Positions 22,661 through 59,699 are shown, numbered from the stretch's first letter. The stretch is DNA of 64,000 bases from Patescibacteria group bacterium (GCA_028871115.1 JAGWOD010000003.1:103-64102); one strand, 5' to 3'. Numbers and translations: made by a program. Notes: generated by a model not told the origin, from the letters alone.

Positions 22661-23875
22661 ATGTTTGATCTTAAAGTAATCAATTCGGTCCTTGGAGAAC
22701 TCGAGGACGAGCGAGGTATTCCGCGCGAGAAAGTCATTGGTGCCATCGAAGCAGCCCTCGCGACTGCCTACAAGAAGGAATATGGCAAGCGTGGACAGGA
22801 TATCCGGGCCAAACTCGATCTCTCAACAGGTGCCACCGAATTCATGCAAGTAAAAACCGTCGTCGATGAGCACACCGTGCGCTTCGAAGAGGAAGGAGAC
22901 GAGGAGGAAGTGCGCAAACCCGCCATGAAGACCGAAAAGGTCGAAGAGAGCGTGGGTGTACCTGTCGAAGAACTTCTCCCCCGCTATGATCCTGAGAAAC
23001 ATATCCTTCTTGCTGACGCGAAATTCATAAAAAAGGACGCGAAAGTTGGCGATGAGCTCGTGTTTCCTCTTGAAGGTAAGGAGGACTATGGCCGCATTGC
23101 AGCCCAAACTGCCAAGCAGGTCATTATCCAAAAGATACGGGAGGCAGAGAAAGTATCTGTTGTCGCTGAGTTCGGCAAACGCCAAGGTGAGATTGTTTCA
23201 GGGACTGTCCAGCGGATCGAGCGGGGCAATCTCTACATCGATCTCGGCCGGGCAACGGGCATTCTCCCGTACGAAGAACAGATCCAGGGGGAACGCTATC
23301 GCCAGGGAGAGCGTATCCGTGCGCTTCTCTACCAAGTAGAGGATTCCCCCCGGGGTGTGTATCTGCGTCTCTCGCGCGCACATCCACAATTCCTCGCAAA
23401 ACTCTTCGAAATGGAAGCTCCTGAAGTGGCCCATGGGACGGTCGTCGTTAAATCAATCGCTCGAGAAGCAGGTTCTCGCTCCAAAATAGCGGTTGCCTCA
23501 GTTGATCCCCATGTCGATCCGGTAGGATCGCTCGTCGGTCAGCGGGGCGTGCGTGTCTCGACCGTCACCTCAGAACTCGGTGGCGAGAAAATAGACATCA
23601 TTGAGTGGTCTGAAGATCCCAAGGCATATATAGAAGAAGCACTTTCGCCCGCTCGAGTCATATCAGTCGACATCGCTGAGGAAGCGCGACGCGCGACCGT
23701 CACCGTGACTGATGATCAACAGTCCCTTGCTATCGGCCGAGGTGGCCAGAATGTACGTCTCGCGGCAAAACTCACCGGGTGGTCAATAGACATCAAAGGA
23801 GCCCGAGGTGAAGAAGTCGCTGCAGCCAATAAGGAAGGCACGCTCGTCGAGGAAGAGCCAGCTGCTGCTGAATAA
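22661..23875 (+). CDS. nusA: Transcription termination/antitermination factor NusA
   Basis: NusA N-terminal domain (MFDLKVINSVLGELEDERGIPREKV...), S1 domain and two KH domains (GQRGVRVSTVTSELGGEKIDII, IGRGGQNVRLAAKLTGWSIDI). Confidence 0.9.
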   Translation: MFDLKVINSVLGELEDERGIPREKVIGAIEAALATAYKKEYGKRGQDIRAKLDLSTGATEFMQVKTVVDEHTVRFEEEGDEEEVRKPAMKTEKVEESVGVPVEELLPRYDPEKHILLADAKFIKKDAKVGDELVFPLEGKEDYGRIAAQTAKQVIIQKIREAEKVSVVAEFGKRQGEIVSGTVQRIERGNLYIDLGRATGILPYEEQIQGERYRQGERIRALLYQVEDSPRGVYLRLSRAHPQFLAKLFEMEAPEVAHGTVVVKSIAREAGSRSKIAVASVDPHVDPVGSLVGQRGVRVSTVTSELGGEKIDIIEWSEDPKAYIEEALSPARVISVDIAEEARRATVTVTDDQQSLAIGRGGQNVRLAAKLTGWSIDIKGARGEEVAAANKEGTLVEEEPAAAE

Positions 23876-26609: not shown

Positions 26610-28139
26610 ATGTCATTAACACTACTTTTGTCTCTGCTCGCCGGTGCCGGCGTGGTAGGGATTGTCATTGGATACGTATTCCGTTGGCTCTTGGTGCTTG
26701 CCCGCAAAGGTTCAATCGAACTTGAAGTAAAACAAATTCTCCTCAATGCTCGCGAGGAGGCGAAGAAGATAACGGAGACTGCCGAGGTCAAAGGAAAAGA
26801 GGCAGCCGCTAGTTCGGAGCTTGAAATAAAGGAGAAAGAAGAGAAACTCTCCCGAGCTGAAGACCGCATATTCAAGCGCGAGGAAGCGCTCGACAAACGT
26901 CAAGGAGAACTTGACCGGGAGATTACAGGTCTTAAAGATCGTATTGAAGAGGTCCGGACGATCAAGGAGCGTACCGAGGTGCTTCTCAAAGAGCGTGGCG
27001 AGGCACTCGCCAAGGTCGCGGGGCTTACCAAAGACGAAGCCCGCAATCTTCTTACGCAAGAACTTGAACGCGAATTCAACGAAGATTTCATGGTTCGCGT
27101 ACAGAAACTTGAGCGAGAAGGCTACGAGAAGCTTGAGCGGCGTGCTCGAGAAATCCTTACAACCGCGATCCATCGGCTGGGCAATTCGGTTGCCTCCGAC
27201 ACGATGGCAACCGCCTTTACGATACCGAACGACGATATCAAGGGAAAAATCATTGGCAAAGAAGGCCGTAATATCAAGGCATTTGAGCGTGCAACCGGCG
27301 TTGAGGTGATGATTGATGATACGCCGGGCTCTATTGTCCTTTCCTCCTATGACCCCATCCGTCGTGCGGTAGCTCGTGTTGCGCTTGAAAATCTCATCGT
27401 CGATGGACGTATCCAGCCCGCAAAAATAGAAGATATGGTCGAAAAAGCGAAAGCAGAAGTAACTAAGATAATCAAAGACAAGGGAGAAGCTGCTGCGTAT
27501 GAGACGGGAGTGCTCAATCTTCCCCCTCAAGTCATACAGATTCTTGGTCGCCTCTATTTCCGCACAAGCTACGGGCAAAATGTTCTGCAACACTCGACCG
27601 AGATGGCCCACATTGCCGGTATGATTGCTGAGGAACTTGGTGCTAACGTCCAAGTTGCCAAGGCAGGCGCGCTTTTGCACGATATTGGCAAAGCACTCGA
27701 CCATGAAGTACAGGGTACGCATGTCGAAATAGGTCGCAGAATATTGCAGAAATTTGGAGTTGACGAAGCGGTCATTAAAGCCATGCAAGCCCATCACGAG
27801 GAATACCCTTACGAGACTGCTGAGTCCTACATCGTGCAGGTTGCAGATGCAATTTCAGGGGGACGTCCAGGAGCACGGCGCGACAGTGTCGAAAATTATC
27901 TCAAACGCCTCTCTGACATCGAAGCAATCGCCAATTCCTTCCCCGGTGTGGAGAAAAGCTTTGCCATTTCCGCTGGCCGCGAAGTGCGAGTGTTTGTTAA
28001 ACCTGATGAAATGAACGATTTTGCTGCCCGGGAACTCGCCCGCGACATCGCCAAACGTATTGAAAATGATCTGAAGTATCCTGGTGAAGTAAAGGTTATA
28101 GTTATCCGTGAGACACGAGCTATAGAATTCGCCCGCTAG
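26610..28139 (+). CDS. rny: Ribonuclease Y
   Basis: N-terminal TM anchor, coiled-coil region, KH domain (GKIIGKEGRNIKAFERATGVEVMIDD) and HD domain (HSTEMAHIAGMIAEELG...LLHDIGKA). Confidence 0.85.
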   Translation: MSLTLLLSLLAGAGVVGIVIGYVFRWLLVLARKGSIELEVKQILLNAREEAKKITETAEVKGKEAAASSELEIKEKEEKLSRAEDRIFKREEALDKRQGELDREITGLKDRIEEVRTIKERTEVLLKERGEALAKVAGLTKDEARNLLTQELEREFNEDFMVRVQKLEREGYEKLERRAREILTTAIHRLGNSVASDTMATAFTIPNDDIKGKIIGKEGRNIKAFERATGVEVMIDDTPGSIVLSSYDPIRRAVARVALENLIVDGRIQPAKIEDMVEKAKAEVTKIIKDKGEAAAYETGVLNLPPQVIQILGRLYFRTSYGQNVLQHSTEMAHIAGMIAEELGANVQVAKAGALLHDIGKALDHEVQGTHVEIGRRILQKFGVDEAVIKAMQAHHEEYPYETAESYIVQVADAISGGRPGARRDSVENYLKRLSDIEAIANSFPGVEKSFAISAGREVRVFVKPDEMNDFAARELARDIAKRIENDLKYPGEVKVIVIRETRAIEFAR

Positions 28140-29231: not shown

Positions 29232-29302
29232 TGCGGGATGGGAGAATCGAACTCCCAACTTCAGTTTGGAAAACTGACGTTTTGCCACTAAACTAATCCC
29301 GC
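29232..29302 (-). tRNA. tRNA-Gly (anticodon UCC)
   Basis: Reverse complement folds as a cloverleaf: acceptor GCGGGAT/ATCCCGC, anticodon stem TCAGT/ACTGA with loop TTTCCAA, and T-arm GGGAGTTCGATTCTCCC. 3' CCA is not encoded. Confidence 0.8.
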
Positions 29303-29385
29303 AATTCCACTACGGTAGCAGGATGATCTTCCGATAGCAATACATTTTCATTCCCCGGACAGCCTCAGCGGAGTATAGTTGGAAA

Positions 29386-30522
29386 ATGCATTGGTGGGGC
29401 AGTTTCTCTTTATTTTCCTTCCTAAAATGGATAGGCTCTATATTCCTTGCAACTGAGGCACTCTTTGGCTTACACCATCAGGTAAGTACCCCTCCCGCAG
29501 GAGTAACTATAAGCACTCGACCGATACAAAAGATCGCCCAAATTGTAGCCACTACGACGTCTATAAAGGCAAAAAAGAGCCCCGCTAGCAGGGTAGAAAC
29601 GCCTATCGTCGTATCCGCTTCCTCAAGCGTGGCGGTATCGACTATCCTCTCTTCACCCCCATCCATTGATCCAGAGCTTCTCAATGAAGAGGCGCGTGCC
29701 GCGGTCGTGAATATCCTCTGCACGACAGGAGGTGGAGGCTATTTTGAACCTATAAGCGCGAGCGGGACTATTATTGATCCTCGTGGGGTCATTCTTACCA
29801 ATGCTCACGTGGGACAGTATTTTCTCCTGCGCAACTATCCAATACCCGATAATGTAAACTGCGAAATACGTACGGGAAGCCCTGCGCAGGCAAGCTATTC
29901 TGCGGAACTCCTCTATCTACCGTCGGAGTGGGTTGCGGCCAACGCATCCCAAATCACCTCATCGGAGCCTGTAGGCACGGGTCAATACGACTACGCCCTG
30001 CTTCTCATAACCGGTTCGCTCAACTCCAACACTCCCCTGCCCTCATCATTCCCGTATCTAGAGCCAAACGCTTCTGACCCTGATGTAGGCGACGAAATGC
30101 TTCTCGCTTCTTATCCTGCGAGCTTCCTTGGAGGCATCGCCATCCAAAGCCACTTATATCTTTCAACTGCCTATGCTACTGTCTCAAAACTCTACGTCTT
30201 CGATACCGCCGACCAGTGGGTCGATCTTTTCTCCGTACCTGGAACTGTAGTATCCCAGAGCGGATCATCCGGAGGTGCTGTTGTACGAGCAAGCGACGGA
30301 ACACTTGCTGGAATCATAGTGACTTCTACTCAAGCGACTTCTACAGAAGGACGCGATTTACGGGCGGTTTCCCTAGCACATATTGATCACAATCTTGAAA
30401 GTGATGGCCTTGGGGATATAAATTCATTTCTCTCGGGAAATTTACAAACGAAAGCATTTATATTCAATCAGACAACGGCTCCTGTCCTTGAACAGGAGCT
30501 CGTAAATGCCATTAATTCATAA
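29386..30522 (+). CDS. Secreted trypsin-like (S1 family) serine peptidase
   Basis: N-terminal signal/anchor, then catalytic triad motifs TNAHV (His), the D region, and GSSGGAV (GDSGGP-like Ser). Confidence 0.65.
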   Translation: MHWWGSFSLFSFLKWIGSIFLATEALFGLHHQVSTPPAGVTISTRPIQKIAQIVATTTSIKAKKSPASRVETPIVVSASSSVAVSTILSSPPSIDPELLNEEARAAVVNILCTTGGGGYFEPISASGTIIDPRGVILTNAHVGQYFLLRNYPIPDNVNCEIRTGSPAQASYSAELLYLPSEWVAANASQITSSEPVGTGQYDYALLLITGSLNSNTPLPSSFPYLEPNASDPDVGDEMLLASYPASFLGGIAIQSHLYLSTAYATVSKLYVFDTADQWVDLFSVPGTVVSQSGSSGGAVVRASDGTLAGIIVTSTQATSTEGRDLRAVSLAHIDHNLESDGLGDINSFLSGNLQTKAFIFNQTTAPVLEQELVNAINS

Positions 30523-30534
30523 GGTTTTTACTCT

Positions 30535-30605
30535 TCGGGCCGCTGGGAATCGAACCCAGTCTACCTGCTCCCAAAGCAGGCGTACTACCGGTATACGACG
30601 GCCCG
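30535..30605 (-). tRNA. tRNA-Pro (anticodon UGG)
   Basis: Acceptor CGGGCCG/CGGCCCG, anticodon stem CCTGC/GCAGG with loop TTTGGGA, and T-arm CTGGGTTCGATTCCCAG. No encoded CCA. Confidence 0.8.
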
Positions 30606-30980
30606 GTGTCCTTTAAAATATCGGACATTTTTGGAGTATAGCAAGAAAACAAAGGAAAAGATAAAAAACCATTAAAAATAAACAAAAATATCTTCATATA
30701 TGTTCTCTAAAAAATTAAAAATGCTTCGCGTGAAATAGGACAAAATTAGAACTAATACTAAATCTCAACAGGTTATCCATAGGATTTATACAATGAAAAC
30801 ATGTTCATTTTTATATTTCACGTGAAAATTGTTACGTTAGTAACGTATGTAACCATTAAAAACATGGTTAAGCCATAAAAGACACAAAATTATGTCCTTT
30901 ATACACATGTACACACACTTATCCACACCACTTCTAACGATGAAAAACCCTAAAAACAGAGCTCTAGATCTTTATCTCAA

Positions 30981-31051
30981 GTGCGGATAGGGAGAATCGA
31001 ACTCCCACCTCGTCCTTGGCAAGGACGCGTCCTACCACTAAACGATATCCG
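30981..31051 (-). tRNA. tRNA-Gly (anticodon GCC)
   Basis: Acceptor GCGGATA/TATCCGC, anticodon stem CGTCC/GGACG with loop TTGCCAA, and T-arm GTGGGAGTTCGATTCTCCC. No encoded CCA. Confidence 0.8.
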
Positions 31052-31095
31052 CGATGTAGGTATAGTAGCTTAAATTCACACTTTTGCTAACCATT

Positions 31096-31168
31096 CGCGC
31101 CCGGCAGGACTCGAACCCACAACCCCCTGGTCCGAAGCCAGGTGCTCTATCCATTGAGCTACGGGCGC
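31096..31168 (-). tRNA. tRNA-Arg (anticodon UCG)
   Basis: Acceptor GCGCCCG/CGGGCGC, D-arm GCTCAATGGATAGAGC, anticodon stem CCTGG/CCAGG with loop CTTCGGA, and T-arm GTGGGTTCGAGTCC. Confidence 0.8.
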
Positions 31169-31212: not shown

Positions 31213-32688
31213 GTGGTGAAAATCGAAAAAAATAATATACCGCAAGCAGTTTTGAACGTTACAGAAACGATAGAAAATGGCGGATTTGAAGCATATATCG
31301 TCGGGGGATGTACTAGAGATCTCCTCATCGGTCGTACCCCAAAAGATTGGGACGTCACTACCAACGCTAATCCAGAAGAGATCCAAAAACTCTTCGAAAA
31401 CACCTTTTATACCAATGAATTTGGCACCGTAGGTGTCGTACAAGAACAAGAAGAGAAGTCTCTACAGGTTATTGAAGTAACCCCCTACCGTACAGAAGGA
31501 AAATATACCGATGCACGGCGGCCAGATTCTGTTGCATGGGCAAAAACCATACAAGAAGACCTAAAACGGCGTGACTTTACAATCAACGCCTTCGCATATC
31601 GACCAAAAACAAATGAGTTTATCGATGAATTCGATGGAGAAAAAGACTTGAAAAATAAGGTTATTTCTGCAGTAGGGGATCCCCATGAGCGTTTCACAGA
31701 GGATGCCTTACGTATTTTGCGTGCCGTACGTATTTCAGCGGAACTCGATTTCGCCATAGAGGAAAAGACAAAAATCGCAATGTCCGAGCAAGCTCCTCAA
31801 CTTGGAAAAATTTCAAAAGAACGCATCAGGGATGAATTTATACGGATCTTGAATTCAGCAAAGCCCATGAAAGCTTTGTTACTTGCTCAGAGCTTGAACA
31901 TTTTGTCCTTTATAGCTCCCGAACTTGAGGAGGGGATAGGGGTGGAACAAAACCAGGCCCATAAATATACAGTATTTGAACACAATCTTCGTACGCTCCA
32001 ACATGCTGCTGATAAAGATTGGCCTTTCGACGTAAGATTGGCCGGTTTGTTTCACGATATTGGAAAGCCTAAGGTACGACAATGGTCAGATGAAAAGAAA
32101 GACTGGACATTTCATGGACATGACGTGGTTGGTGCTCGCATAGCGAAAAAGCTCCTTAAAAACCTGCACTTTCCACGTGAAACAATCGATAAGGTTGAAA
32201 AAATGGTCCGGTGGCACATGTTCTTTTCCGATCCAGAAAAAGTTACACTCTCAGCTGTGCGCCGCATCATACGAAACGTTGATAAGGAAAATATAGAAGA
32301 TCTTGTAAAGCTGCGTATATGCGATCGAATAGGAACAGGAAGGCCAAAAGAACAACCGTTTCGTCTTAGAAAGTACCATTCTATGATTGCTCAAGCGCTA
32401 CGGGATCCAATTACCGTTGGCATGCTAGAGATCGATGGGGGAGCACTCATGAAAATCACTGGAGAGAAGCCTGGACCGCGTCTAGGATGGATCCTGCATG
32501 CACTTCTTGAAGAGGTCCTTGATGATCCATCAAAAAATACATTAGAGCATCTTGAAGAAAGGGCTAAGGAACTTGCGGCACTTCCTGATACAAAACTCAA
32601 ATCTTTTGGTGAATCCGGAAAAGAGCGGAAAAATGAGGCGGAAGAGGAAAATCTAAAGGAAATACGTAAAAAATACTTTGTAGATTAA
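31213..32688 (+). CDS. cca: tRNA nucleotidyltransferase (CCA-adding enzyme) with C-terminal HD domain
   Basis: PolyA_pol head domain GGCTRDLLIGRTPKDWD (GGxVRD motif) and a C-terminal HD phosphohydrolase motif FHDIGKP. Confidence 0.8.
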   Translation: MVKIEKNNIPQAVLNVTETIENGGFEAYIVGGCTRDLLIGRTPKDWDVTTNANPEEIQKLFENTFYTNEFGTVGVVQEQEEKSLQVIEVTPYRTEGKYTDARRPDSVAWAKTIQEDLKRRDFTINAFAYRPKTNEFIDEFDGEKDLKNKVISAVGDPHERFTEDALRILRAVRISAELDFAIEEKTKIAMSEQAPQLGKISKERIRDEFIRILNSAKPMKALLLAQSLNILSFIAPELEEGIGVEQNQAHKYTVFEHNLRTLQHAADKDWPFDVRLAGLFHDIGKPKVRQWSDEKKDWTFHGHDVVGARIAKKLLKNLHFPRETIDKVEKMVRWHMFFSDPEKVTLSAVRRIIRNVDKENIEDLVKLRICDRIGTGRPKEQPFRLRKYHSMIAQALRDPITVGMLEIDGGALMKITGEKPGPRLGWILHALLEEVLDDPSKNTLEHLEERAKELAALPDTKLKSFGESGKERKNEAEEENLKEIRKKYFVD

Positions 32689-33872: not shown

Positions 33873-34811
33873 TTATTTTCTCCTTTTTCCATGGAACGCT
33901 CTATGCACTTCGCGGAGGTGTTTGTCTGTGATGTGTGTGTAGACTTGTGTTGTCGCAATATTTGAGTGGCCAAGAAGCGCTTGCACACTTCGAAGATCGG
34001 CCCCATTTTCAAGAAGATCCGTTGCAAAAGAATGCCTAATGACATGCGGAGTAACTTTCTTTGTGATACCCGCCTTCACGGCATAGCGCTTCACAAGTCG
34101 CTCAACTGAACGGGGAGTGAGCCGGAGATCTTTTGTAGCTTTTACATTTTTCCCCAACTGGGCAAAGAGCGCTTCATCTACATCGCCACGTTTATTCAGA
34201 TACTCTTTTATTGTCCTCTTTGCGGCAGGGGAGAGAAAGACGACCCGTACTTTCTCACCCTTACCGCGTACCGAGAACTCCTCACGGGAGAGATCGAGAT
34301 CCCGATTGAGTGAGCAGAGTTCAGATACGCGTAAGCCGGTCGAGAATAAAAGCTCAAGAATTGCTCGATCGCGCAGCGCAGAGAGAGATGAGCCGCTTGG
34401 AGTCTTCATGAGTCGGTTAAGCTCCTCTGAAGAAATAAGGTCGAGGTCTCGTGCTCCGACTTTTGCAAGTTCGATTCGTTCAGGAGAAAGAGATTCAATG
34501 CCGCGTTTGCGCAGGAATTTCAAAAATGCACGCAGGGCGATCAGATAGTAGTTTTGAGTCTTAAGTTTAAGATTTTGTGAAACGCCGGGCTGGCGGTTGA
34601 GATAGAGTCGAAACTGTCTGACTGATTCCTCACTAATACGGGAAGGGGAGGTAAGCGTAGAGTACGCAAGATAGCGGCTAAGATAGCGATCATAATTCTC
34701 GATAGTCTTGAGACTTCGTCCTCGTTCAATCTCAAGGTATTCGAGAAATTGATTCTTGAGCTCTTTAAGATTCGACACACAAGAAATTGTAACACTAGAG
34801 AAGAGTCGCAC
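33873..34811 (-). CDS. Tyrosine site-specific recombinase, XerC/XerD family
   Basis: N-terminal SAM-like core-binding domain and a C-terminal catalytic domain with the R...HxxRH...Y pattern (VIRHSFATDLLENGADLRSVQALLGHSNIATTQVYTHI). Confidence 0.8.
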   Translation of the reverse strand: MRLFSSVTISCVSNLKELKNQFLEYLEIERGRSLKTIENYDRYLSRYLAYSTLTSPSRISEESVRQFRLYLNRQPGVSQNLKLKTQNYYLIALRAFLKFLRKRGIESLSPERIELAKVGARDLDLISSEELNRLMKTPSGSSLSALRDRAILELLFSTGLRVSELCSLNRDLDLSREEFSVRGKGEKVRVVFLSPAAKRTIKEYLNKRGDVDEALFAQLGKNVKATKDLRLTPRSVERLVKRYAVKAGITKKVTPHVIRHSFATDLLENGADLRSVQALLGHSNIATTQVYTHITDKHLREVHRAFHGKRRK

Positions 34812-34924
34812 AATATTTTTCTTGCAGTAAACTCAAAAAAGTTTTAAGTTTTTGGAAATATTTTCTTTATCATGGGCTACCGCAGCCTCTTGCTAAACGC
34901 TCAAGCCTGTGATACGATATAAAC

Positions 34925-35191
34925 ATGCTGACGAAGCGAAAGAAGACTGCAACGGTTAAAGAAGCAGGTATACATGAGAAGGACACGGGTTCGCCTGAGG
35001 TCCAAATTGCCCTCCTTTCTAAGCGAATAGATGAGCTCACCACTCATCTCCGAAAGCACGGCAAAGATAAGCATTCTCGCCGAGGGCTTCTCCAGATGGT
35101 CGCCAATCGACGCACACATTTGAAATATCTCGAAGGAAACGATAAGAAGCGCTATAACGCAATTGTCCGTAAACTTAACCTCAAGAAATAA
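34925..35191 (+). CDS. rpsO: 30S ribosomal protein S15
   Basis: GSPEVQIALLSKRIDELTTHLRKHGKDKHSRRGLLQMVANRRTHLKYL matches the S15 consensus. Confidence 0.9.
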   Translation: MLTKRKKTATVKEAGIHEKDTGSPEVQIALLSKRIDELTTHLRKHGKDKHSRRGLLQMVANRRTHLKYLEGNDKKRYNAIVRKLNLKK

Positions 35192-35352
35192 GCTCCAGAG
35201 GAGGCGTGAAACAAAATAGCCTCCCAGGACGTATACTACTGTAGGGTCTTCGTGCGTTTTTCATGCGGTTCATGCTTCTTTAGTGTATATAGTTCCCTGT
35301 CAGTGTAACGTTTTCCGTCCGTAGGACGGTCCTAACCAATAGTTTTATTTAT

Positions 35353-35955
35353 ATGGCTATCATCAAACATAAAAGCCAGCGTGTCGGCATTTTCATAGAT
35401 ACGCAAAATCTTTATCATAGTGCGAAGAATCTCTATCACTCCAAGGTTAATTTCGGCCAGGTTGTGAAGGAAGCGCTTGCAGGTCGAGTACTTATACGGG
35501 CTGTCGCGTATGTCATTCGAACTGAATCTGAAGAAGAAAAGGGGTTTTTCGAAGCCCTTAATAAACTCGGCATCGAGACCCGGGTGAAGGATATCCGCAT
35601 CTTCGCTGGAGGCGCTAAAAAGGCGGATTGGGATATCGGCATGGCAATTGACGCTATCTCCATGGGTCACAAACTCGATACCGTTGTCCTTGCAACAGGC
35701 GATGGCGATTTCACGCCGCTCATTGAATATCTTAAGTTCACCTATGGAGTACAAGTTGAAGTTATCGCGTTCGGTAAGAGCGCCGCAACTCAACTCAAGG
35801 AAGCGGCGGATGATTTTATCGATATGGGCGACAATCCAAAGAATTACCTTATTGGCTATCGCGGCGGGGGACGTTGGTTCAATACAACCGCCGAAGAAAC
35901 CGAAAAGGGGGAAACCGACCCTGCAATCGAAATGTCGGGGGAACCTGAGAATTAA
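35353..35955 (+). CDS. NYN-domain (LabA-like, PIN-related) protein
   Basis: VGIFIDTQNLY...VVLATGDGDFTPLIEYLKFTYGVQVEVIAF matches the NYN/LabA fold signature (acidic residues D-x-x-N and SGDGDF). Located between rpsO and pnp. Confidence 0.65.
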   Translation: MAIIKHKSQRVGIFIDTQNLYHSAKNLYHSKVNFGQVVKEALAGRVLIRAVAYVIRTESEEEKGFFEALNKLGIETRVKDIRIFAGGAKKADWDIGMAIDAISMGHKLDTVVLATGDGDFTPLIEYLKFTYGVQVEVIAFGKSAATQLKEAADDFIDMGDNPKNYLIGYRGGGRWFNTTAEETEKGETDPAIEMSGEPEN

Positions 35956-35976
35956 TTTTCCATCCTTCTATTGCCC

Positions 35977-36016
35977 GAAAACCCCTGCAACATTGCCGCA
36001 GGGGTTTTCTTTTGTT
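35977..36016 (+). terminator. Rho-independent terminator upstream of pnp
   Basis: 12 bp stem GAAAACCCCTGC/GCAGGGGTTTTC followed by TTTTGTT. Confidence 0.6.
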
Positions 36017-36062
36017 ACAGTTTTACTGTTATCCATAATCGCGAAGCGCGCGGATAGGTAGG

Positions 36063-36083
36063 TTTCAAACGTTTTGTTTGAAA
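36063..36083 (+). promoter_or_regulatory. Hairpin in the pnp 5' leader (possible autoregulatory / RNase III-type processing site)
   Basis: Perfect 8 bp stem TTTCAAAC-GTTTT-GTTTGAAA about 35 nt upstream of the pnp start. Confidence 0.35.
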
Positions 36084-36116
36084 TCTGAAATTCGCGGGTT
36101 TCGCACCTCACCAACA

Positions 36117-38324
36117 ATGCAGACCCGAAGTTTCTCGACCGAGATAGGCGGTAAGACACTCACCGCCGAATTTAATGATCTTGCGGAAAATGCTGATGGA
36201 TCGGTGATCCTGCGCTACGGCAACACAGCGGTTATCGCCACAGCAGTCATAAGCGAGCGCACACGAGAGGATATCGATTATTTTCCCCTCACCGTCGACT
36301 ACGAAGAGCGTTTCTATGCGGCAGGTCAAATCCTCGGCTCCCGCTTCGTTCGCCGCGAAGGACGTCCTTCAGATCAGGCTATTCTCTCCGGCCGCGTCGT
36401 CGACCGCACGATCCGACCGCTTTTTAATTGGAACATCCGCAACGAAGTGCAGGTCGTCATTACTGTTCTCTCCATAGACGAAGACGATCCAGACATGCTC
36501 GCGGTCAATGCGGCGTCACTTGCACTTGCAGTTTCACGCATTCCCTGGGGAGGACCCGTCGCGGCTGTGCGTATCGGCAAGATAAAAGGAGGAAGTGACC
36601 TTATCATCAACCCGAGCTACGCGTTCCGGGAAAAAACGGATACCGCGTTTGATCTACTCGCCTGCGGGCAGAGAGGCACTATCAATATGATTGAAGTGGG
36701 CTCACGCGAAGTGTCCGAAGAGGATATCACGCAAGCACTTGAGCGCGCAGTCGAGGAGCAAGAAAAGCTTCTTGTCTGGCAGCGACAAATAATTAAGGAA
36801 ATCGGAAAAGAAAAGGCAATCCTCAAAACAGGGGAGGTTCCGGATGCACTTCAGACCCTGTTCAACAATGAATTTAAGAAGGAACTACACGACGTCATCT
36901 TCTGTGGCACCCCAGGAAAGGAGAGCATTAGCGACCTCAAGAAACGCTTTGTTGCGCGATACACTCAAGTCGAAGAACTCAAAGACGTGAAGAAATCCAC
37001 CGCGGAGCGCTTCCTCGAGGACCGTGTCAACGACGAGATTCACCGCGGCGCGATTGAAGATGGAAAGCGCGCGGACGGTCGGGCCTTTGACGAGCTCCGG
37101 CCCATTTTTGCCAAAGCAGGCGGCGTCTCACCAATGCTCCATGGATCAGGCATTTTCTACCGCGGCGGCACTCACGTCTTCACGGCGCTTACCCTTGGCG
37201 GTCCTGGGGATTCTCTTGTCATCGACACCATGGAGGAACAGGAGGTCAAAAAACGTTTCATGCACCACTATAATTTCCCGCCCTTCTCGGTCGGGGAGAC
37301 GGGGCGTATGGGCGGACTTAACCGTCGCATGGTTGGCCATGGCTATCTCGCAGAAAAATCGCTCGAAGCGGTTATTCCTCCCAAAGAGCAATTCCCGTAT
37401 ACCATCCGCTTGGTCTCAGAATGCATGGCTTCCAACGGTTCGACTTCTATGGGATCAGTTTGTGCTTCCACCATCGCACTTATGGACGGGGGAATCCCCA
37501 TCAAAGCTCCGGTCGCCGGTATCGCCATGGGTCTCATGATGTCACCCCGTTTTACAGAAGATAAAAAATATCGGGTGCTCACCGACATCCAGGGACCGGA
37601 AGATCATCACGGCGATATGGATTTCAAAGTGGCGGGGACAAGAGCGGGCATCACTGGTATCCAGCTCGACATCAAACTCGATGGTGTGCCCGTCTCAATA
37701 CTTACAGAGGCGCTCCACGCAGCCCGCGAGGCACGCTTCAAGATTCTTGATGTGATTGAAAAAGAAATCTCTACACCACGGAAGTCTCTTTCTCCGCGCG
37801 CTCCGGAAATTGCCACTATGAGCGTGCGTCCTGACCAGATAGGACTTGTCATCGGGGGAGGAGGAAAGACTATCAATGGAATTAAAGAAACTTCAGGGGC
37901 AGAAGATATCACGGTAGAGGATGATGGTTCGATCTTCATCACTGGTCGGAATGGGACAGCGCAAAAAGCTCGTGAACTTATCGAAGCGGTCGTGAAGGAA
38001 TATAAAGCAGGAGAAGTTTACGAGGGAACCGTCACGCGTCTTATGGATTTTGGTGCCTTTGTACGCATCGGGCCTATGAAGGATGCCGAGGGGCTTGTAC
38101 ATGTTTCGGAGGTTGCTCCCTTCCGGATTGATAAGATTTCCGATGCACTCGCGATTGGGGATAAAGTGCGCGTTATGATAAAGGAGATAGACGAGAAGGG
38201 GCGCATCAATCTTTCGATAAAACAGATTGACCCCGATTTCGCCTCACGCAAAGGACTTAAGCCCTCGACAAACCCATCACATGGCGGACGAAACCACACC
38301 GGGAACGAGCGGCGATTCCAATAA
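36117..38324 (+). CDS. pnp: Polyribonucleotide nucleotidyltransferase (PNPase)
   Basis: Two RNase PH domains, KH domain (GGGGKTINGIKETSGA) and C-terminal S1 domain (GEVYEGTVTRLMDFGAFV...). Start taken at the internal Met (MQTRSFSTEIGGK). Confidence 0.9.
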   Translation: MQTRSFSTEIGGKTLTAEFNDLAENADGSVILRYGNTAVIATAVISERTREDIDYFPLTVDYEERFYAAGQILGSRFVRREGRPSDQAILSGRVVDRTIRPLFNWNIRNEVQVVITVLSIDEDDPDMLAVNAASLALAVSRIPWGGPVAAVRIGKIKGGSDLIINPSYAFREKTDTAFDLLACGQRGTINMIEVGSREVSEEDITQALERAVEEQEKLLVWQRQIIKEIGKEKAILKTGEVPDALQTLFNNEFKKELHDVIFCGTPGKESISDLKKRFVARYTQVEELKDVKKSTAERFLEDRVNDEIHRGAIEDGKRADGRAFDELRPIFAKAGGVSPMLHGSGIFYRGGTHVFTALTLGGPGDSLVIDTMEEQEVKKRFMHHYNFPPFSVGETGRMGGLNRRMVGHGYLAEKSLEAVIPPKEQFPYTIRLVSECMASNGSTSMGSVCASTIALMDGGIPIKAPVAGIAMGLMMSPRFTEDKKYRVLTDIQGPEDHHGDMDFKVAGTRAGITGIQLDIKLDGVPVSILTEALHAAREARFKILDVIEKEISTPRKSLSPRAPEIATMSVRPDQIGLVIGGGGKTINGIKETSGAEDITVEDDGSIFITGRNGTAQKARELIEAVVKEYKAGEVYEGTVTRLMDFGAFVRIGPMKDAEGLVHVSEVAPFRIDKISDALAIGDKVRVMIKEIDEKGRINLSIKQIDPDFASRKGLKPSTNPSHGGRNHTGNERRFQ

Positions 38325-39393
38325 GAAGGATTCGCTCGATCTTGAGAAGATTCTTCTTCCTAAAAAAGATCCCTCAAAGCTTTCGGCACAACGCGTAAAT
38401 GCGGCCGAGGTGCTTGAGGCTGCTTCTGCACCGCTTCCAAAAGCTCCGGCGCCAGAACCTCTTCCCGTAAAACCTGCCCTGGAGATTCCCGCAATTGAAA
38501 CCTATAAAAGCGATATAGAGGAGACCGTGCGAGGAAAAAATATCTCTCTTGTCGAAATTGCAGCAGCACAAGCACGACGGGGTGGATCTCTAGGACCTGC
38601 TGAAGAAGAGGTTCCTCAAGGGACTTCCCGAAAACGACTGCTACAGATTGGTGTGGGTGGCTTGCTTCTGCTTGGCGCGGTGGTAGCAATTGCAGCAGCG
38701 CTCTCGCGCGGAAGTGCACTGCCCCCTGCACAATCTCCTTCCGCTCCCTATATCTACGTCGACGGTACACAGACCGTGCCCGTCCCCGAAGGCTCAACCC
38801 GGTCGGAGATTATGACCGAGCTCGAAGCAGATCGGCAGAATACCAATATTGCCCTTGGACTCATCTCCCGCCTCTATCTCGTTGCACCTGCAACCACGAC
38901 CAACGCCGGAGCAGTGCCACTCTCGACATCTGACTTTTTTTCCTTGATGGCGCCGAATGCCGATCCCTCCCTGGTGCGCTCGCTTGATCCGACCTTTCTC
39001 CTCGGCGTCCATTCCTTCGACGGGAACCAGGCCTTCCTCATTTTCACCACCAACTCTTATGACCAGGCGTACGCCGGTATGCTCTCTTGGGAGGACACGA
39101 TGCAGACCGATCTCTCACCGCTTTTCGATCGCACGCCTCCCATCCATATTCCGGAGGAAGGAAATACCGCAGCAGAAGCAATCGCTGCTCCACAGCTCCT
39201 CCAGAGTCCTTTTTCAGACCTCGTCGTTGATAATGAGGATGCACGCGTCATTCAAGATTCCTCGGGTGACATATTGCTCCTGTGGACTTTTGTTGATCGA
39301 CAGACGCTTGTTATCACGACAAACCAATATACGCTCCAGGAAATCATCTCACGCCTCACCGAGGCACCGGTGGTCCCCATCCCTGGAGAGTAA
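38281..39393 (+). CDS. Hypothetical single-pass membrane protein (overlaps the pnp 3' end in another frame)
   Basis: MADETTPGTSGDSNK... with one TM segment (LLQIGVGGLLLLGAVVAIAAAL) and an extracytoplasmic C-terminal domain. The start is uncertain. Confidence 0.4.
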   Translation: MADETTPGTSGDSNKKDSLDLEKILLPKKDPSKLSAQRVNAAEVLEAASAPLPKAPAPEPLPVKPALEIPAIETYKSDIEETVRGKNISLVEIAAAQARRGGSLGPAEEEVPQGTSRKRLLQIGVGGLLLLGAVVAIAAALSRGSALPPAQSPSAPYIYVDGTQTVPVPEGSTRSEIMTELEADRQNTNIALGLISRLYLVAPATTTNAGAVPLSTSDFFSLMAPNADPSLVRSLDPTFLLGVHSFDGNQAFLIFTTNSYDQAYAGMLSWEDTMQTDLSPLFDRTPPIHIPEEGNTAAEAIAAPQLLQSPFSDLVVDNEDARVIQDSSGDILLLWTFVDRQTLVITTNQYTLQEIISRLTEAPVVPIPGE

Positions 39394-39418
39394 TCCAGAG
39401 TGCTATAGTACGAAGCGT

Positions 39419-39793
39419 ATGGATGAGAAAAAACTTTCGCATTTCAAGAAAAAATTGGAAGAAGAATTGAGAACAGTGGAGAGCGACTTGGCAGACGTCG
39501 GCCGCAAGAATCCGGATGCACCAGGAGAGTGGGAAGCACAAGTAAAGGATACTGACACGGCCTCCACAGAAGCGGATGAAAAGGCAGATAAATTTGAGGA
39601 GTATGAAAGCAATAGTGCAATCCTTGAGCCGGTTGCAGCGCGAGCTAAAGAAATACAGCACGCACTTGAAAAGATTGCCTCAGGCACCTATGGCCTCTGC
39701 GAAGTCTCCGGCGAGAGGATAGAGGAAGCTCGGCTCGAAGCGAATCCTGCTGCACGCACGTGCGAGAAGCATATGCGGCAAGGGAAAAGCTAA
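39419..39793 (+). CDS. DksA/TraR-family C4-type zinc-finger protein
   Basis: Coiled-coil N-terminal region plus C-terminal YGLCEVSGERIEEARLEANPAARTCEKH (C-x2-C...C-x2-C finger). The ATG at 39419 lies inside the larger spurious ORF 38957..39793. Confidence 0.65.
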   Translation: MDEKKLSHFKKKLEEELRTVESDLADVGRKNPDAPGEWEAQVKDTDTASTEADEKADKFEEYESNSAILEPVAARAKEIQHALEKIASGTYGLCEVSGERIEEARLEANPAARTCEKHMRQGKS

Positions 39794-58364: not shown

Positions 58365-59699
58365 ATGACGACCACACGGGAGCTCTGGGAAAACGCCCTC
58401 ACCGACATCGAGCTCTCACTCCCGAAGGCGGCATTCAGTACCTGGTTTCGGGATACCCATATCGTGCGGGTGGAGGACGGGGTGGTATACGTAGGCGTCC
58501 CCTCGCAATTTGTGCGCGATTGGTTCGCCTCGAAGTACCACAAGCTCATTTTGGGCTCCCTGCGTCAGCTCTCGGAGGGCGTACGTTCAGTTGAATATAT
58601 TATTTCCAAGCACCCCAAGAAAAACGCTGAGGAGGTTCGGGCCCCTATAGCTGCAGGAGAACTACCGCTTGAGACCGTGCATGTGCAGACTAATCTCAAC
58701 CCGCGCTATCTCTTCGAGAGCTTTATTGTGGGACCGTTCAATGAACTCGCGCATGCGGCCGCGCAAGCGGTCGTGAAGAAGCCCGGCATAGCGTACAATC
58801 CGCTCTTCATCTACGGGGAGACAGGGCTCGGCAAAACACACCTCATCCAAGCAATCGGAAATCATTTCCGAGCCAAAGCTCCGGAGCGGAAAGTATTCTA
58901 CACAACTTCGGAAAAATTTTATCTTGAATATGTCTCTGCGATGCAGGGTGGGCGCATCCCAGCCTTTAAAGAAAAGTTCCGAGAATACGATCTTTTGGTT
59001 ATGGATGATATTCAGTTTCTCTCCGGGAAAAGCGGTACCCAGGAAGAATTATTTCATCTCTTCAACGCCCTGTTTGATAAAAATAAGCAGCTTATTTTCT
59101 CCTCCGACCAGCACCCCAACCTTACTCAAAAGCTTATGGAGCGCTTAAAATCGCGCTTTAACCAAGGAATGATCGTCTCCATTATGCCGCCAGATCATGA
59201 GAGTCGGGTTGCTATTGTGCGCAGTAAGGTTTCAGCCCGCGGGGTAGTGTTGGCTGATGAGGTGCTCGATTACATCGCAACCGCAGTCGAGGGCAACGTG
59301 CGGGAGCTCGAAGGCGCAATTAACTCGCTTCTTCTCTCAAGCGAGATGCGCTCTGAGAGTCTCACACTCGTAGATGCAAAAGCGCTCCTGCGTACGGCGG
59401 GAGCGCCTAAGAAGGCAGTGTCTGTTGAGGAAGTAGTAAAACTTGTTTCAGATTTCTATGGCGTAGAAACTCATAGTATTTACGAGAAGACACGGCGTAA
59501 GGAAGTGGTCCGTCCACGGCAGGTCATCATGTACGTGCTCCGCGAAGACTTCCATATTTCTTTTCCAACAATCGGAGAAAAGCTTGGCGGACGCGATCAT
59601 ACGACCGTCATTCATTCCTGCGACAAGATTAAGGGAAATATGAAAGTTGACAGTGTACTTTCCCAAGAACTTCAACAGATTCGAATGATGTTGAAATAG
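58365..59699 (+). CDS. dnaA: Chromosomal replication initiator DnaA
   Basis: AAA+ Walker A YGETGLGKTHL, sensor motifs, and the C-terminal DNA-binding domain (TIGEKLGGRDHTTVIHSCDKI). Confidence 0.95.
   Translation: MTTTRELWENALTDIELSLPKAAFSTWFRDTHIVRVEDGVVYVGVPSQFVRDWFASKYHKLILGSLRQLSEGVRSVEYIISKHPKKNAEEVRAPIAAGELPLETVHVQTNLNPRYLFESFIVGPFNELAHAAAQAVVKKPGIAYNPLFIYGETGLGKTHLIQAIGNHFRAKAPERKVFYTTSEKFYLEYVSAMQGGRIPAFKEKFREYDLLVMDDIQFLSGKSGTQEELFHLFNALFDKNKQLIFSSDQHPNLTQKLMERLKSRFNQGMIVSIMPPDHESRVAIVRSKVSARGVVLADEVLDYIATAVEGNVRELEGAINSLLLSSEMRSESLTLVDAKALLRTAGAPKKAVSVEEVVKLVSDFYGVETHSIYEKTRRKEVVRPRQVIMYVLREDFHISFPTIGEKLGGRDHTTVIHSCDKIKGNMKVDSVLSQELQQIRMMLK

Follow-up and report, generated by a model that had tools for sequence, protein, structure and literature searches.

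A strongly conserved NYN-domain gene beside rpsO in Patescibacteria and a candidate leader RNA of the neighbouring pnp gene

The NYN gene between rpsO and pnp

The stretch of DNA analysed here (the window) comprises 64,000 nt from a Patescibacteria group bacterium (GCA_028871115.1, JAGWOD010000003.1:103-64102) and carries, between the genes for ribosomal protein S15 (rpsO) and polynucleotide phosphorylase (PNPase; pnp), a gene for a protein with an NYN domain, a predicted nuclease domain. Comparison with related genomes identifies rpsO as the invariant partner of this NYN gene and pnp as a frequent but dispensable neighbour. All features of the locus lie on the plus strand. The rpsO gene (34925..35191; 88 aa; PF00312, E 1.1e-30; TIGR00952, E 2e-31, above its cutoff) is followed by a 161-nt spacer (35192..35352), the NYN gene (35353..35955; 200 aa; PF01936, E 2.7e-35), a terminator-like hairpin (35977..36016), a promoter-like extended -10 box of pnp (36013..36021), a structured 64-nt pnp 5' leader supported by covariation (36041..36104), and pnp itself (36117..38324; 735 aa; NF008805, E 3.5e-236), whose product contains two RNase_PH domains together with KH and S1 domains. 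The start codon of pnp, ATG 36117, was picked by agreement with relatives, in which the gene begins with ATGCAA or ATGCAG. The NYN open reading frame (ORF) begins with MAIIKHKSQRVGIFIDTQNLY and includes the motif ATGDGDF. An earlier note on this DNA had placed a 200-aa NYN gene between rpsO and pnp, and the ORF, Pfam and gene-family matches confirm this. The note had also called the gene inserted, which does not hold in any recent sense: recent insertion or horizontal transfer was rejected because the GC content of the gene (0.45-0.48) is that of its neighbours and the synteny is ancient.

Synteny was scanned with one genome per species, and the best 80 of at least 583 loci were analysed. S15 was encoded directly upstream of the NYN gene, on the same strand, at 80/80 loci (median gap 118 nt). 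PNPase was encoded downstream at 50 of the 80, directly adjoining the NYN gene (gap < ~330 nt) in 24 cases and 0.4-3.4 kb beyond it, with other DNA between, in 26. At 18-19 loci the rpsO-NYN pair was kept with no PNPase within >4 kb downstream, which is the definition of a pnp-less locus used throughout, and an ORF388 homologue or other genes followed; at the remaining loci the downstream sequence was too short to judge pnp. Unlike the rpsO-NYN pair, pnp and the genes upstream of rpsO (xerC and xth, encoding in the window a XerC-type recombinase and an ExoIII-type nuclease on the minus strand) were repeatedly displaced. The rpsO-NYN-pnp arrangement highlighted in the earlier note is thus conserved in relatives, but its constant element is rpsO and not pnp. 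Bacteria ancestrally have rpsO next to pnp, so that the tie of the NYN gene to rpsO may in large part explain why it also neighbours pnp.

Gene context was also looked up for eight divergent cluster representatives (42-50% identity to the NYN protein), and in five of these S15 lay upstream of NYN, with differing flanking genes. They comprise P0135 from Candidatus Magasanikbacteria (a complete 1.03-Mb genome with LeuRS/DUF559 upstream, unknown genes downstream and no pnp nearby), P0148 and P0208 (both S15-NYN-PNPase), P0198 (S15-NYN, then pilin-like genes) and P0231 (S15-NYN). The rpsO-NYN position is therefore found across at least two Patescibacteria classes (Paceibacteria/Parcubacteria and Magasanikbacteria). 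The other three representatives are P0144, annotated as Woesearchaeota (a DPANN archaeon; L085-L087) and without S15; P0256 (L215-L216), likewise without S15 and next to an archaeal-type gene that we take to belong to the PF0610-type zinc-ribbon family; and P0222, annotated only as 'bacterium', which lies 3' of nusA-clpP-tyrS. For P0144 and P0256, gene exchange between bacteria of the Candidate Phyla Radiation (CPR) and DPANN archaea is one possible explanation.

The NYN gene is under very strong purifying selection at the protein level. A word-index search with the NYN protein gave at least 8000 scored candidates, all significant, the best 120 of which share 71-89% identity with the window protein, and the gene occurs in thousands of genomes at 60-89% identity. 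An exhaustive search of 50%-identity cluster representatives returned 3461 at E <= 1e-3 and 164 at E <= 1e-30. The nearest named relatives belong to Candidatus Adlerbacteria, and public databases name the family 'NYN domain-containing' or 'LabA/DUF88 family'. When 20 orthologues were aligned, the first 28 residues were invariant, and a variable linker was followed in most by the tail motif (E)DPAIxMSGE. Along the full length of the gene, 5' end included, third codon positions have almost reached saturation, and the constraint therefore acts on the NYN protein. An overlapping RNA element behind the invariant N-terminus was considered and rejected, as the third-codon entropy at four-fold sites is 1.6-1.9 bits over the whole gene, codons 1-30 included. 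NYN is about as conserved as S15: across the 80 loci, median identity to the window protein was 69.5% for NYN, 65.9% for S15, 60.9% for PNPase and 65.7% for XerC, the NYN value being inflated relative to its neighbours because the loci were picked as the best NYN matches.

The fold and active site of the protein were assessed by profile matching and structure prediction. The PF01936 match scores 122.5 bits against a cutoff of 24.2 and covers profile positions 1-144 of 145; in a Pfam scan at E <= 0.01 this was the only family found, with no match to PF05991 (NYN_YacP). An AlphaFold2 model built from an alignment of 50 diverse homologues reached pLDDT 91.7 and pTM 0.81 (20 near-identical orthologues gave only pLDDT 45). 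In this model, residues ~8-165 form the folded catalytic domain and the tail, residues 170-200, is of low confidence; the protein ends in the motif DPAIEMSGE. Foldseek against the PDB placed 2QIP at the top (E 4.7e-17, TM 0.91 on target), followed by the human and mouse MARF1 NYN domains (E 1e-7 to 1e-6, TM ~0.73), all other matches being far weaker. A PDB sequence search gave 2QIP as its sole match (a shallow profile yielding E 1.6e-25 and a diverse profile E 6.8e-49) and did not reach MARF1, which was found by fold comparison only. The predicted structure is that of a real NYN/PIN-like alpha/beta/alpha nuclease fold. In the 50 homologues, which extend down to 35% identity, D16, N19, G73, D94, G116, D117 and D119 are invariant, and D92, D100, K90 and W93 are at least 90% conserved. 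With four aspartates (D16, D94, D117 and D119) invariant and two more (D92 and D100) almost so, the predicted catalytic acidic residues are judged to be retained, and the description of the protein as a predicted nuclease stands. Longer, more divergent homologues carry Lys-rich, low-complexity or disordered tails and no further domain; the search for fused domains as a clue to function was accordingly dropped.

The closest solved structure, 2QIP (VPA0982 of Vibrio parahaemolyticus, in the NYN.COG1432/LabA-like cluster), is a single-domain protein like the window NYN, with which it shares the motifs DxQN, KxDWDxG and SGDGDF at ~28% identity. It is a structural-genomics entry of unassigned function and has neither the invariant N-terminus of the window protein nor its tail motif at the C-terminus. 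The eukaryotic MARF1 NYN domain (PDB 6FDL, 5YAA) has the same fold and the same kind of acidic cluster at 17-18% identity, and provides experimental proof that a PF01936-type domain can be a metal-stimulated endoribonuclease: it is stimulated by Mg/Mn, its active site comprises Asp358/426/427/452, and its degradation of a single-stranded (U)30 oligonucleotide has been demonstrated (PMC6294520). NYN domains coordinate the catalytic metal through four conserved acidic residues. As a whole, MARF1 is large and multidomain (RRM, LOTUS) and acts with the decapping complex, whereas the window NYN has no accessory RNA-binding domain and only a short tail. LabA/LalA of Synechococcus elongatus (COG1432) belongs to the same Pfam family and cluster as the window NYN; LabA is known genetically only, as a circadian-output regulator, and has no rpsO or pnp context.

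Transcription signals and the pnp leader RNA

Upstream of rpsO lies a promoter-like site (34890..34918, plus strand) composed of a -35 element TTGCTA (34890-34895), a 17-nt spacer and an extended -10 box TGATACGAT (34910-34918), which ends 6 nt before the ATG at 34925. A TTGCxx -35 element and a TGnTAnnnT box 6-10 nt before the rpsO ATG were found at 76/81 loci. Since the extended -10 box ends so close to the start codon, the rpsO mRNA would be leaderless or nearly so; a leaderless rpsO mRNA would in turn leave no room for autoregulation by S15 through the 5' untranslated region (UTR), so that the mechanism of E. coli could not apply in the same form.

The spacer between rpsO and the NYN gene (fold z = -2.36) contains a hairpin, GGAGGC...GCCUCC, right after the rpsO stop and without a U-run; a -10-like box, TATACT, at 35232-35237; and a second hairpin, CCGUCC-GUA-GGACGG, at 35315-35329. 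TATACT or TATAAT occurs in 43/78 rpsO-NYN spacers of relatives, a raw count given without a background rate. Many of these spacers also share an AGG(T)...(A)TTTTT(A) pattern after TATACT (window 35232..35270; L002-L020). This may be a conserved feature of the NYN mRNA, either the start of its 5' UTR or an element within it.

Strict terminator-like hairpins were found after rpsO at 17/81 loci and within 150 nt of the NYN stop at 13/78, against 0/78 in a control stretch inside coding sequences. In the window, the hairpin behind the NYN gene is exactly as the earlier note had described it. Its stem, GAAAACCCCUGC/GCAGGGGUUUUC (35977-35988 / 35998-36009), has 12 bp with 7 G-C pairs and is followed, after a 9-nt loop, by UUUUGUU; with a G+C-rich stem and a U-run it is a predicted intrinsic terminator, overlooked by a consensus terminator scanner solely through that program's loop limit of 8. 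The extended -10 box proposed for pnp, TGTTACAGT, has counterparts in relatives: a TGnTAnnnT box precedes the leader model in 32/35 instances, at a median distance of 18.5 nt, compared with a background rate of 4.8% per 70 nt. These signals make rpsO, the NYN gene and pnp appear as neighbours that are each transcribed largely on their own.

The 165 nt between the NYN gene and pnp have a folding energy of -60.8 kcal/mol (z = -6.05 relative to 200 shuffles). The 8-bp hairpin reported earlier in the pnp leader, UUUCAAAC-GUUUU-GUUUGAAA (36063..36083), is exact and forms the P2 tip of the longer hairpin at 36041..36104. This element consists of a 13-bp basal stem P1, an invariant core and a variable apical stem-loop P2; the core, GAUAGGUAG ... 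CCUAAAAUC, forms GAU/AUC and UAG/CUA pairs round an asymmetric loop (5'-ANN, 3'-AA). RNAalifold found compensatory changes in 17 of 21 pairs among 30 leader sequences; when 23 sequences were aligned with MAFFT, pairing was seen in 91.2% of cells and covariation in 16 pairs. None of 500 shuffles reached the observed values, and sliding the partners by 1-3 columns reduced pairing to 28-54%.

A covariance model of the leader, R1, scores 66 bits in the window and gives one match per locus, on the plus strand. Wherever the retrieved DNA contained pnp, at 33 loci and in the window, the match lies directly 5' of that gene, even if 0.5-5 kb separate pnp from the NYN gene; the matches in L051 and L079 lie at the locus edge. 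R1 found no match upstream of rpsO or of the NYN gene and none in pnp-less loci. In all instances but one, 17-47 nt (median 23) separate the core from the pnp ATG. A pattern scan of metagenome contigs yielded 120 matches, 64 of which have a PNPase start 18-164 nt downstream, mostly at 18-30 nt, and ~16 of which are too near a contig edge to judge. Control of other genes by the motif was rejected, as the 40 matches without pnp score at most 24 bits and are chance matches; full-length leaders beside pnp score 34-70 bits with R1. At least six metagenome contigs carry leader and pnp but neither an NYN gene nor rpsO in the 2.5-10 kb upstream. Because the leader always stands directly 5' of pnp, also where no NYN gene is linked, it is a pnp-specific cis element. 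Rfam 15, searched over 34700..36300 at the gathering threshold and at E <= 10, gave no credible match in this interval and contains no family that covers the leader; only a weak minus-strand rliD match below threshold (14.7 bits, where gathering requires 50) reaches into it, with its edge.

In E. coli and Streptomyces, the pnp leader is processed by RNase III. The window resembles the rpsO-pnp region of these organisms in three respects: rpsO lies upstream of pnp, a hairpin of terminator type separates the transcription units, and the 5' leader of pnp contains a long hairpin. It differs by the extra conserved gene between rpsO and pnp and by a leader without Rfam match or sequence similarity, which has its own invariant internal-loop core. 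By analogy, the leader would most simply be an autoregulatory or processing (RNase III-type) hairpin of pnp and not a substrate of the NYN protein. In ~60% of 80 unique leaders, the spacer before the pnp ATG (7-20 nt; window 36105..36119) could base-pair with the 3' side of P1 (mean z = -1.57 relative to shuffled spacers), although this pairing is not seen in the window's own leader; the observation hints at an alternative helix by the pnp start codon once P1 is opened or cut. The leaders of L027, L034 and L065 carry a strongly folded insertion of ~100 nt in the apical part of the hairpin, with the conserved core kept.

Further genes of the window concern RNA metabolism in part. RNase Y (26610..28139), a CCA-adding/poly(A) polymerase-type enzyme (31213..32688) and NusA (22661..23875) are all encoded within 13 kb upstream of rpsO-NYN-pnp and form a local cluster of RNA-metabolism genes; four tRNA genes lie at 29232..31168. 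Downstream of pnp, an ORF without a Pfam match (38326..39393, plus strand; ~355-388 aa) has homologues in 59/80 related loci at 26-49% identity, located 3' of pnp or, where pnp is absent, directly 3' of the NYN gene; it is a conserved syntenic gene of unassigned function. A short ORF at 39400..39793 (plus strand) ends in a C4 zinc finger (CEVSGERIEEARLEANPAARTCEKH) and has a DksA/TraR-type look by eye; the 278-aa ORF listed at 38957..39793 probably has its start set too far upstream. The presence of dnaA (58365..59699) suggests that the replication origin is probably near the window.

Possible roles of the NYN protein

The protein is probably an uncharacterised housekeeping RNase. The reading favoured here, to which a rough probability of 0.45 is assigned, is that it serves as a housekeeping metal-dependent endoribonuclease of Patescibacteria, coupled mainly to S15, i.e., to the small ribosomal subunit or its RNA, with PNPase as an optional partner. 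Most likely it would cut RNA endonucleolytically, either during maturation or quality control of 16S rRNA and the 30S subunit or in association with the ribosome; PNPase, where available, would act downstream and trim the 3' ends so made. Since the window also encodes RNase Y, general decay probably does not depend on the NYN protein alone for its initiation, and a specialised role is therefore favoured. The three genes would have separate promoters, and pnp its own autoregulatory or RNase III-type leader. The best functional analogy for a nuclease encoded beside a ribosomal protein gene is Rae1/YacP of Bacillus subtilis (PF05991), a small NYN-fold, ribosome-associated endoribonuclease that derives its specificity from the ribosome; it differs in belonging to another Pfam family, and yacP lies in a different gene cluster. 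Neighbourhood analysis had previously linked bacterial NYN domains to tRNA or rRNA processing, without experiments (PMC5499597).

A secondary, looser tie to PNPase is possible in view of the C-terminal tails. Four lineage-specific acidic or hydrophobic motifs (DPAIxMSGE, VDVGxEVYDD, PxVVGSDTD and ITGVE) occur in 28 loci, all 28 with pnp nearby; of the NYN loci lacking a motif, 24 have pnp and 18 do not (Fisher p = 1.6e-5, in a post hoc test that ignores phylogeny). Tails at these 18 loci without pnp are shorter and have a median charge slightly above zero. Where a lineage has kept pnp, the acidic peptide of the tail might contact PNPase. The functional link to PNPase-mediated RNA turnover proposed in the earlier note survives in this weaker form: the tail motifs appear just where pnp is nearby, but pnp is optional, has its own promoter-like box and, in the window, is set off from the NYN gene by a terminator-like hairpin.

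Several points weigh against the favoured reading. To our knowledge, no bacterial PF01936 protein has been studied biochemically or at the transcript level, and we know of none with a defined molecular function. The proposed link to the ribosome or 16S rRNA has gene order and the level of conservation as its whole basis, the latter with the sampling bias noted above, and three of the eight divergent homologues (P0144, P0256 and P0222) are not beside S15. The correspondence of D16, D92/D94 and D117/D119 to the MARF1 aspartates is drawn from order and spacing, and the test that ties the tails to pnp has the limits given with it. Separate transcription, as suggested by the promoter-like boxes and the terminator-like hairpins that lie between the genes, weakens the operon argument; conserved order across changed flanks still argues for selection. 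Finally, a classification of PIN-like domains lists the cluster of 2QIP, NYN.COG1432, under 'function unknown' (PMC5499597).

Two alternatives take the same gene order in opposite directions. If the NYN RNase worked specifically with PNPase, it could process the pnp leader for pnp regulation, as the earlier note had proposed, or form the endonuclease arm of a PNPase-based mRNA decay machine. Such a partnership would explain the presence of pnp 3' of the NYN gene at 50 loci, the restriction of the tail motifs to pnp-containing loci, and the existence of a conserved, covarying leader that some factor must recognise. It is nevertheless unlikely, for the rpsO-NYN pair persists at the 18-19 loci that lack both a nearby pnp and the leader motif, the leader stays with pnp when the NYN gene is distant or, on the metagenome contigs, absent, and pnp appears to be separately transcribed. 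The leader, moreover, is a ~24-bp duplex of the kind cut by RNase III, as opposed to the single-stranded RNA on which MARF1 NYN activity was shown (PMC6294520), and RNase Y is present in the window. A dedicated role of the NYN protein in cutting the pnp leader is accordingly unlikely. At the other extreme, there may be no specific link at all: the protein could be a generic LabA/COG1432-type regulator or RNA-binding protein, possibly without nuclease activity in vivo, its position being an inherited order in small, slowly rearranging genomes. The apparently separate transcription of the three genes agrees with this, as do the close homologues unlinked to S15 (one of them in DPANN archaea), the many unrelated contexts of COG1432 proteins and the regulatory phenotype of LabA (PMC5499597). 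Inherited order alone, however, would hardly keep the rpsO-NYN pair together across two Patescibacteria classes while pnp, xerC and xth are repeatedly displaced, nor through changes of flank such as LeuRS/DUF559 upstream (L082-L084) or pilin-like genes downstream (L090), and a generic role fits poorly with conservation at the level of a ribosomal protein and with the invariance of every active-site acidic residue. This alternative too is considered doubtful.

A defence or toxin-type nuclease was also considered, on account of a match to the PADLOC model PDLC01154, 'LabA-like protein, NYN family nuclease' (E 9.8e-14), and is very improbable. The match spans just the NYN domain part of the model (positions 150-297 of 310), no partner defence genes or defence-island context are found among the housekeeping neighbours xth, xerC, rpsO and pnp, and occurrence in thousands of genomes at high identity with host-like GC content is the opposite of patchy, fast-evolving defence genes. 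A bolder version of the favoured ribosomal reading can be formulated as well. Nob1 is an archaeal and eukaryotic PIN nuclease, and the NYN protein could be the counterpart in role of Nob1 or Rae1, i.e., an essential, Patescibacteria-wide endoribonuclease of small-subunit biogenesis or ribosome-associated surveillance. In many lineages it would recruit PNPase by its acidic C-terminal peptide, giving a minimal two-enzyme module beside rpsO, with the pnp leader as a new autoregulatory RNA of the module. In this full form the proposal is speculative and improbable.

Significance for Patescibacteria

A literature search found no relevant paper on NYN proteins in Patescibacteria, rpsO-NYN linkage, CPR ribonucleases or this pnp leader. 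The NYN family was known already; what is new here is an rpsO-linked, strongly conserved NYN subfamily, a candidate pnp leader RNA, and apparently leaderless rpsO mRNAs. Patescibacteria, or CPR bacteria, are a very large and mostly uncultured group with reduced genomes, whose core machinery is largely inferred by homology. A single-domain predicted nuclease that is conserved like a ribosomal protein and always located 3' of rpsO at the loci compared is a strong candidate for a core enzyme of RNA processing that had been missing. The locus also offers testable material: a 200-aa enzyme that should express easily, a candidate partner in PNPase with a candidate docking peptide, and a 64-nt covarying leader. 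Leaderless rpsO mRNAs, if true, would mean that S15 synthesis in these bacteria is controlled differently from the E. coli model.

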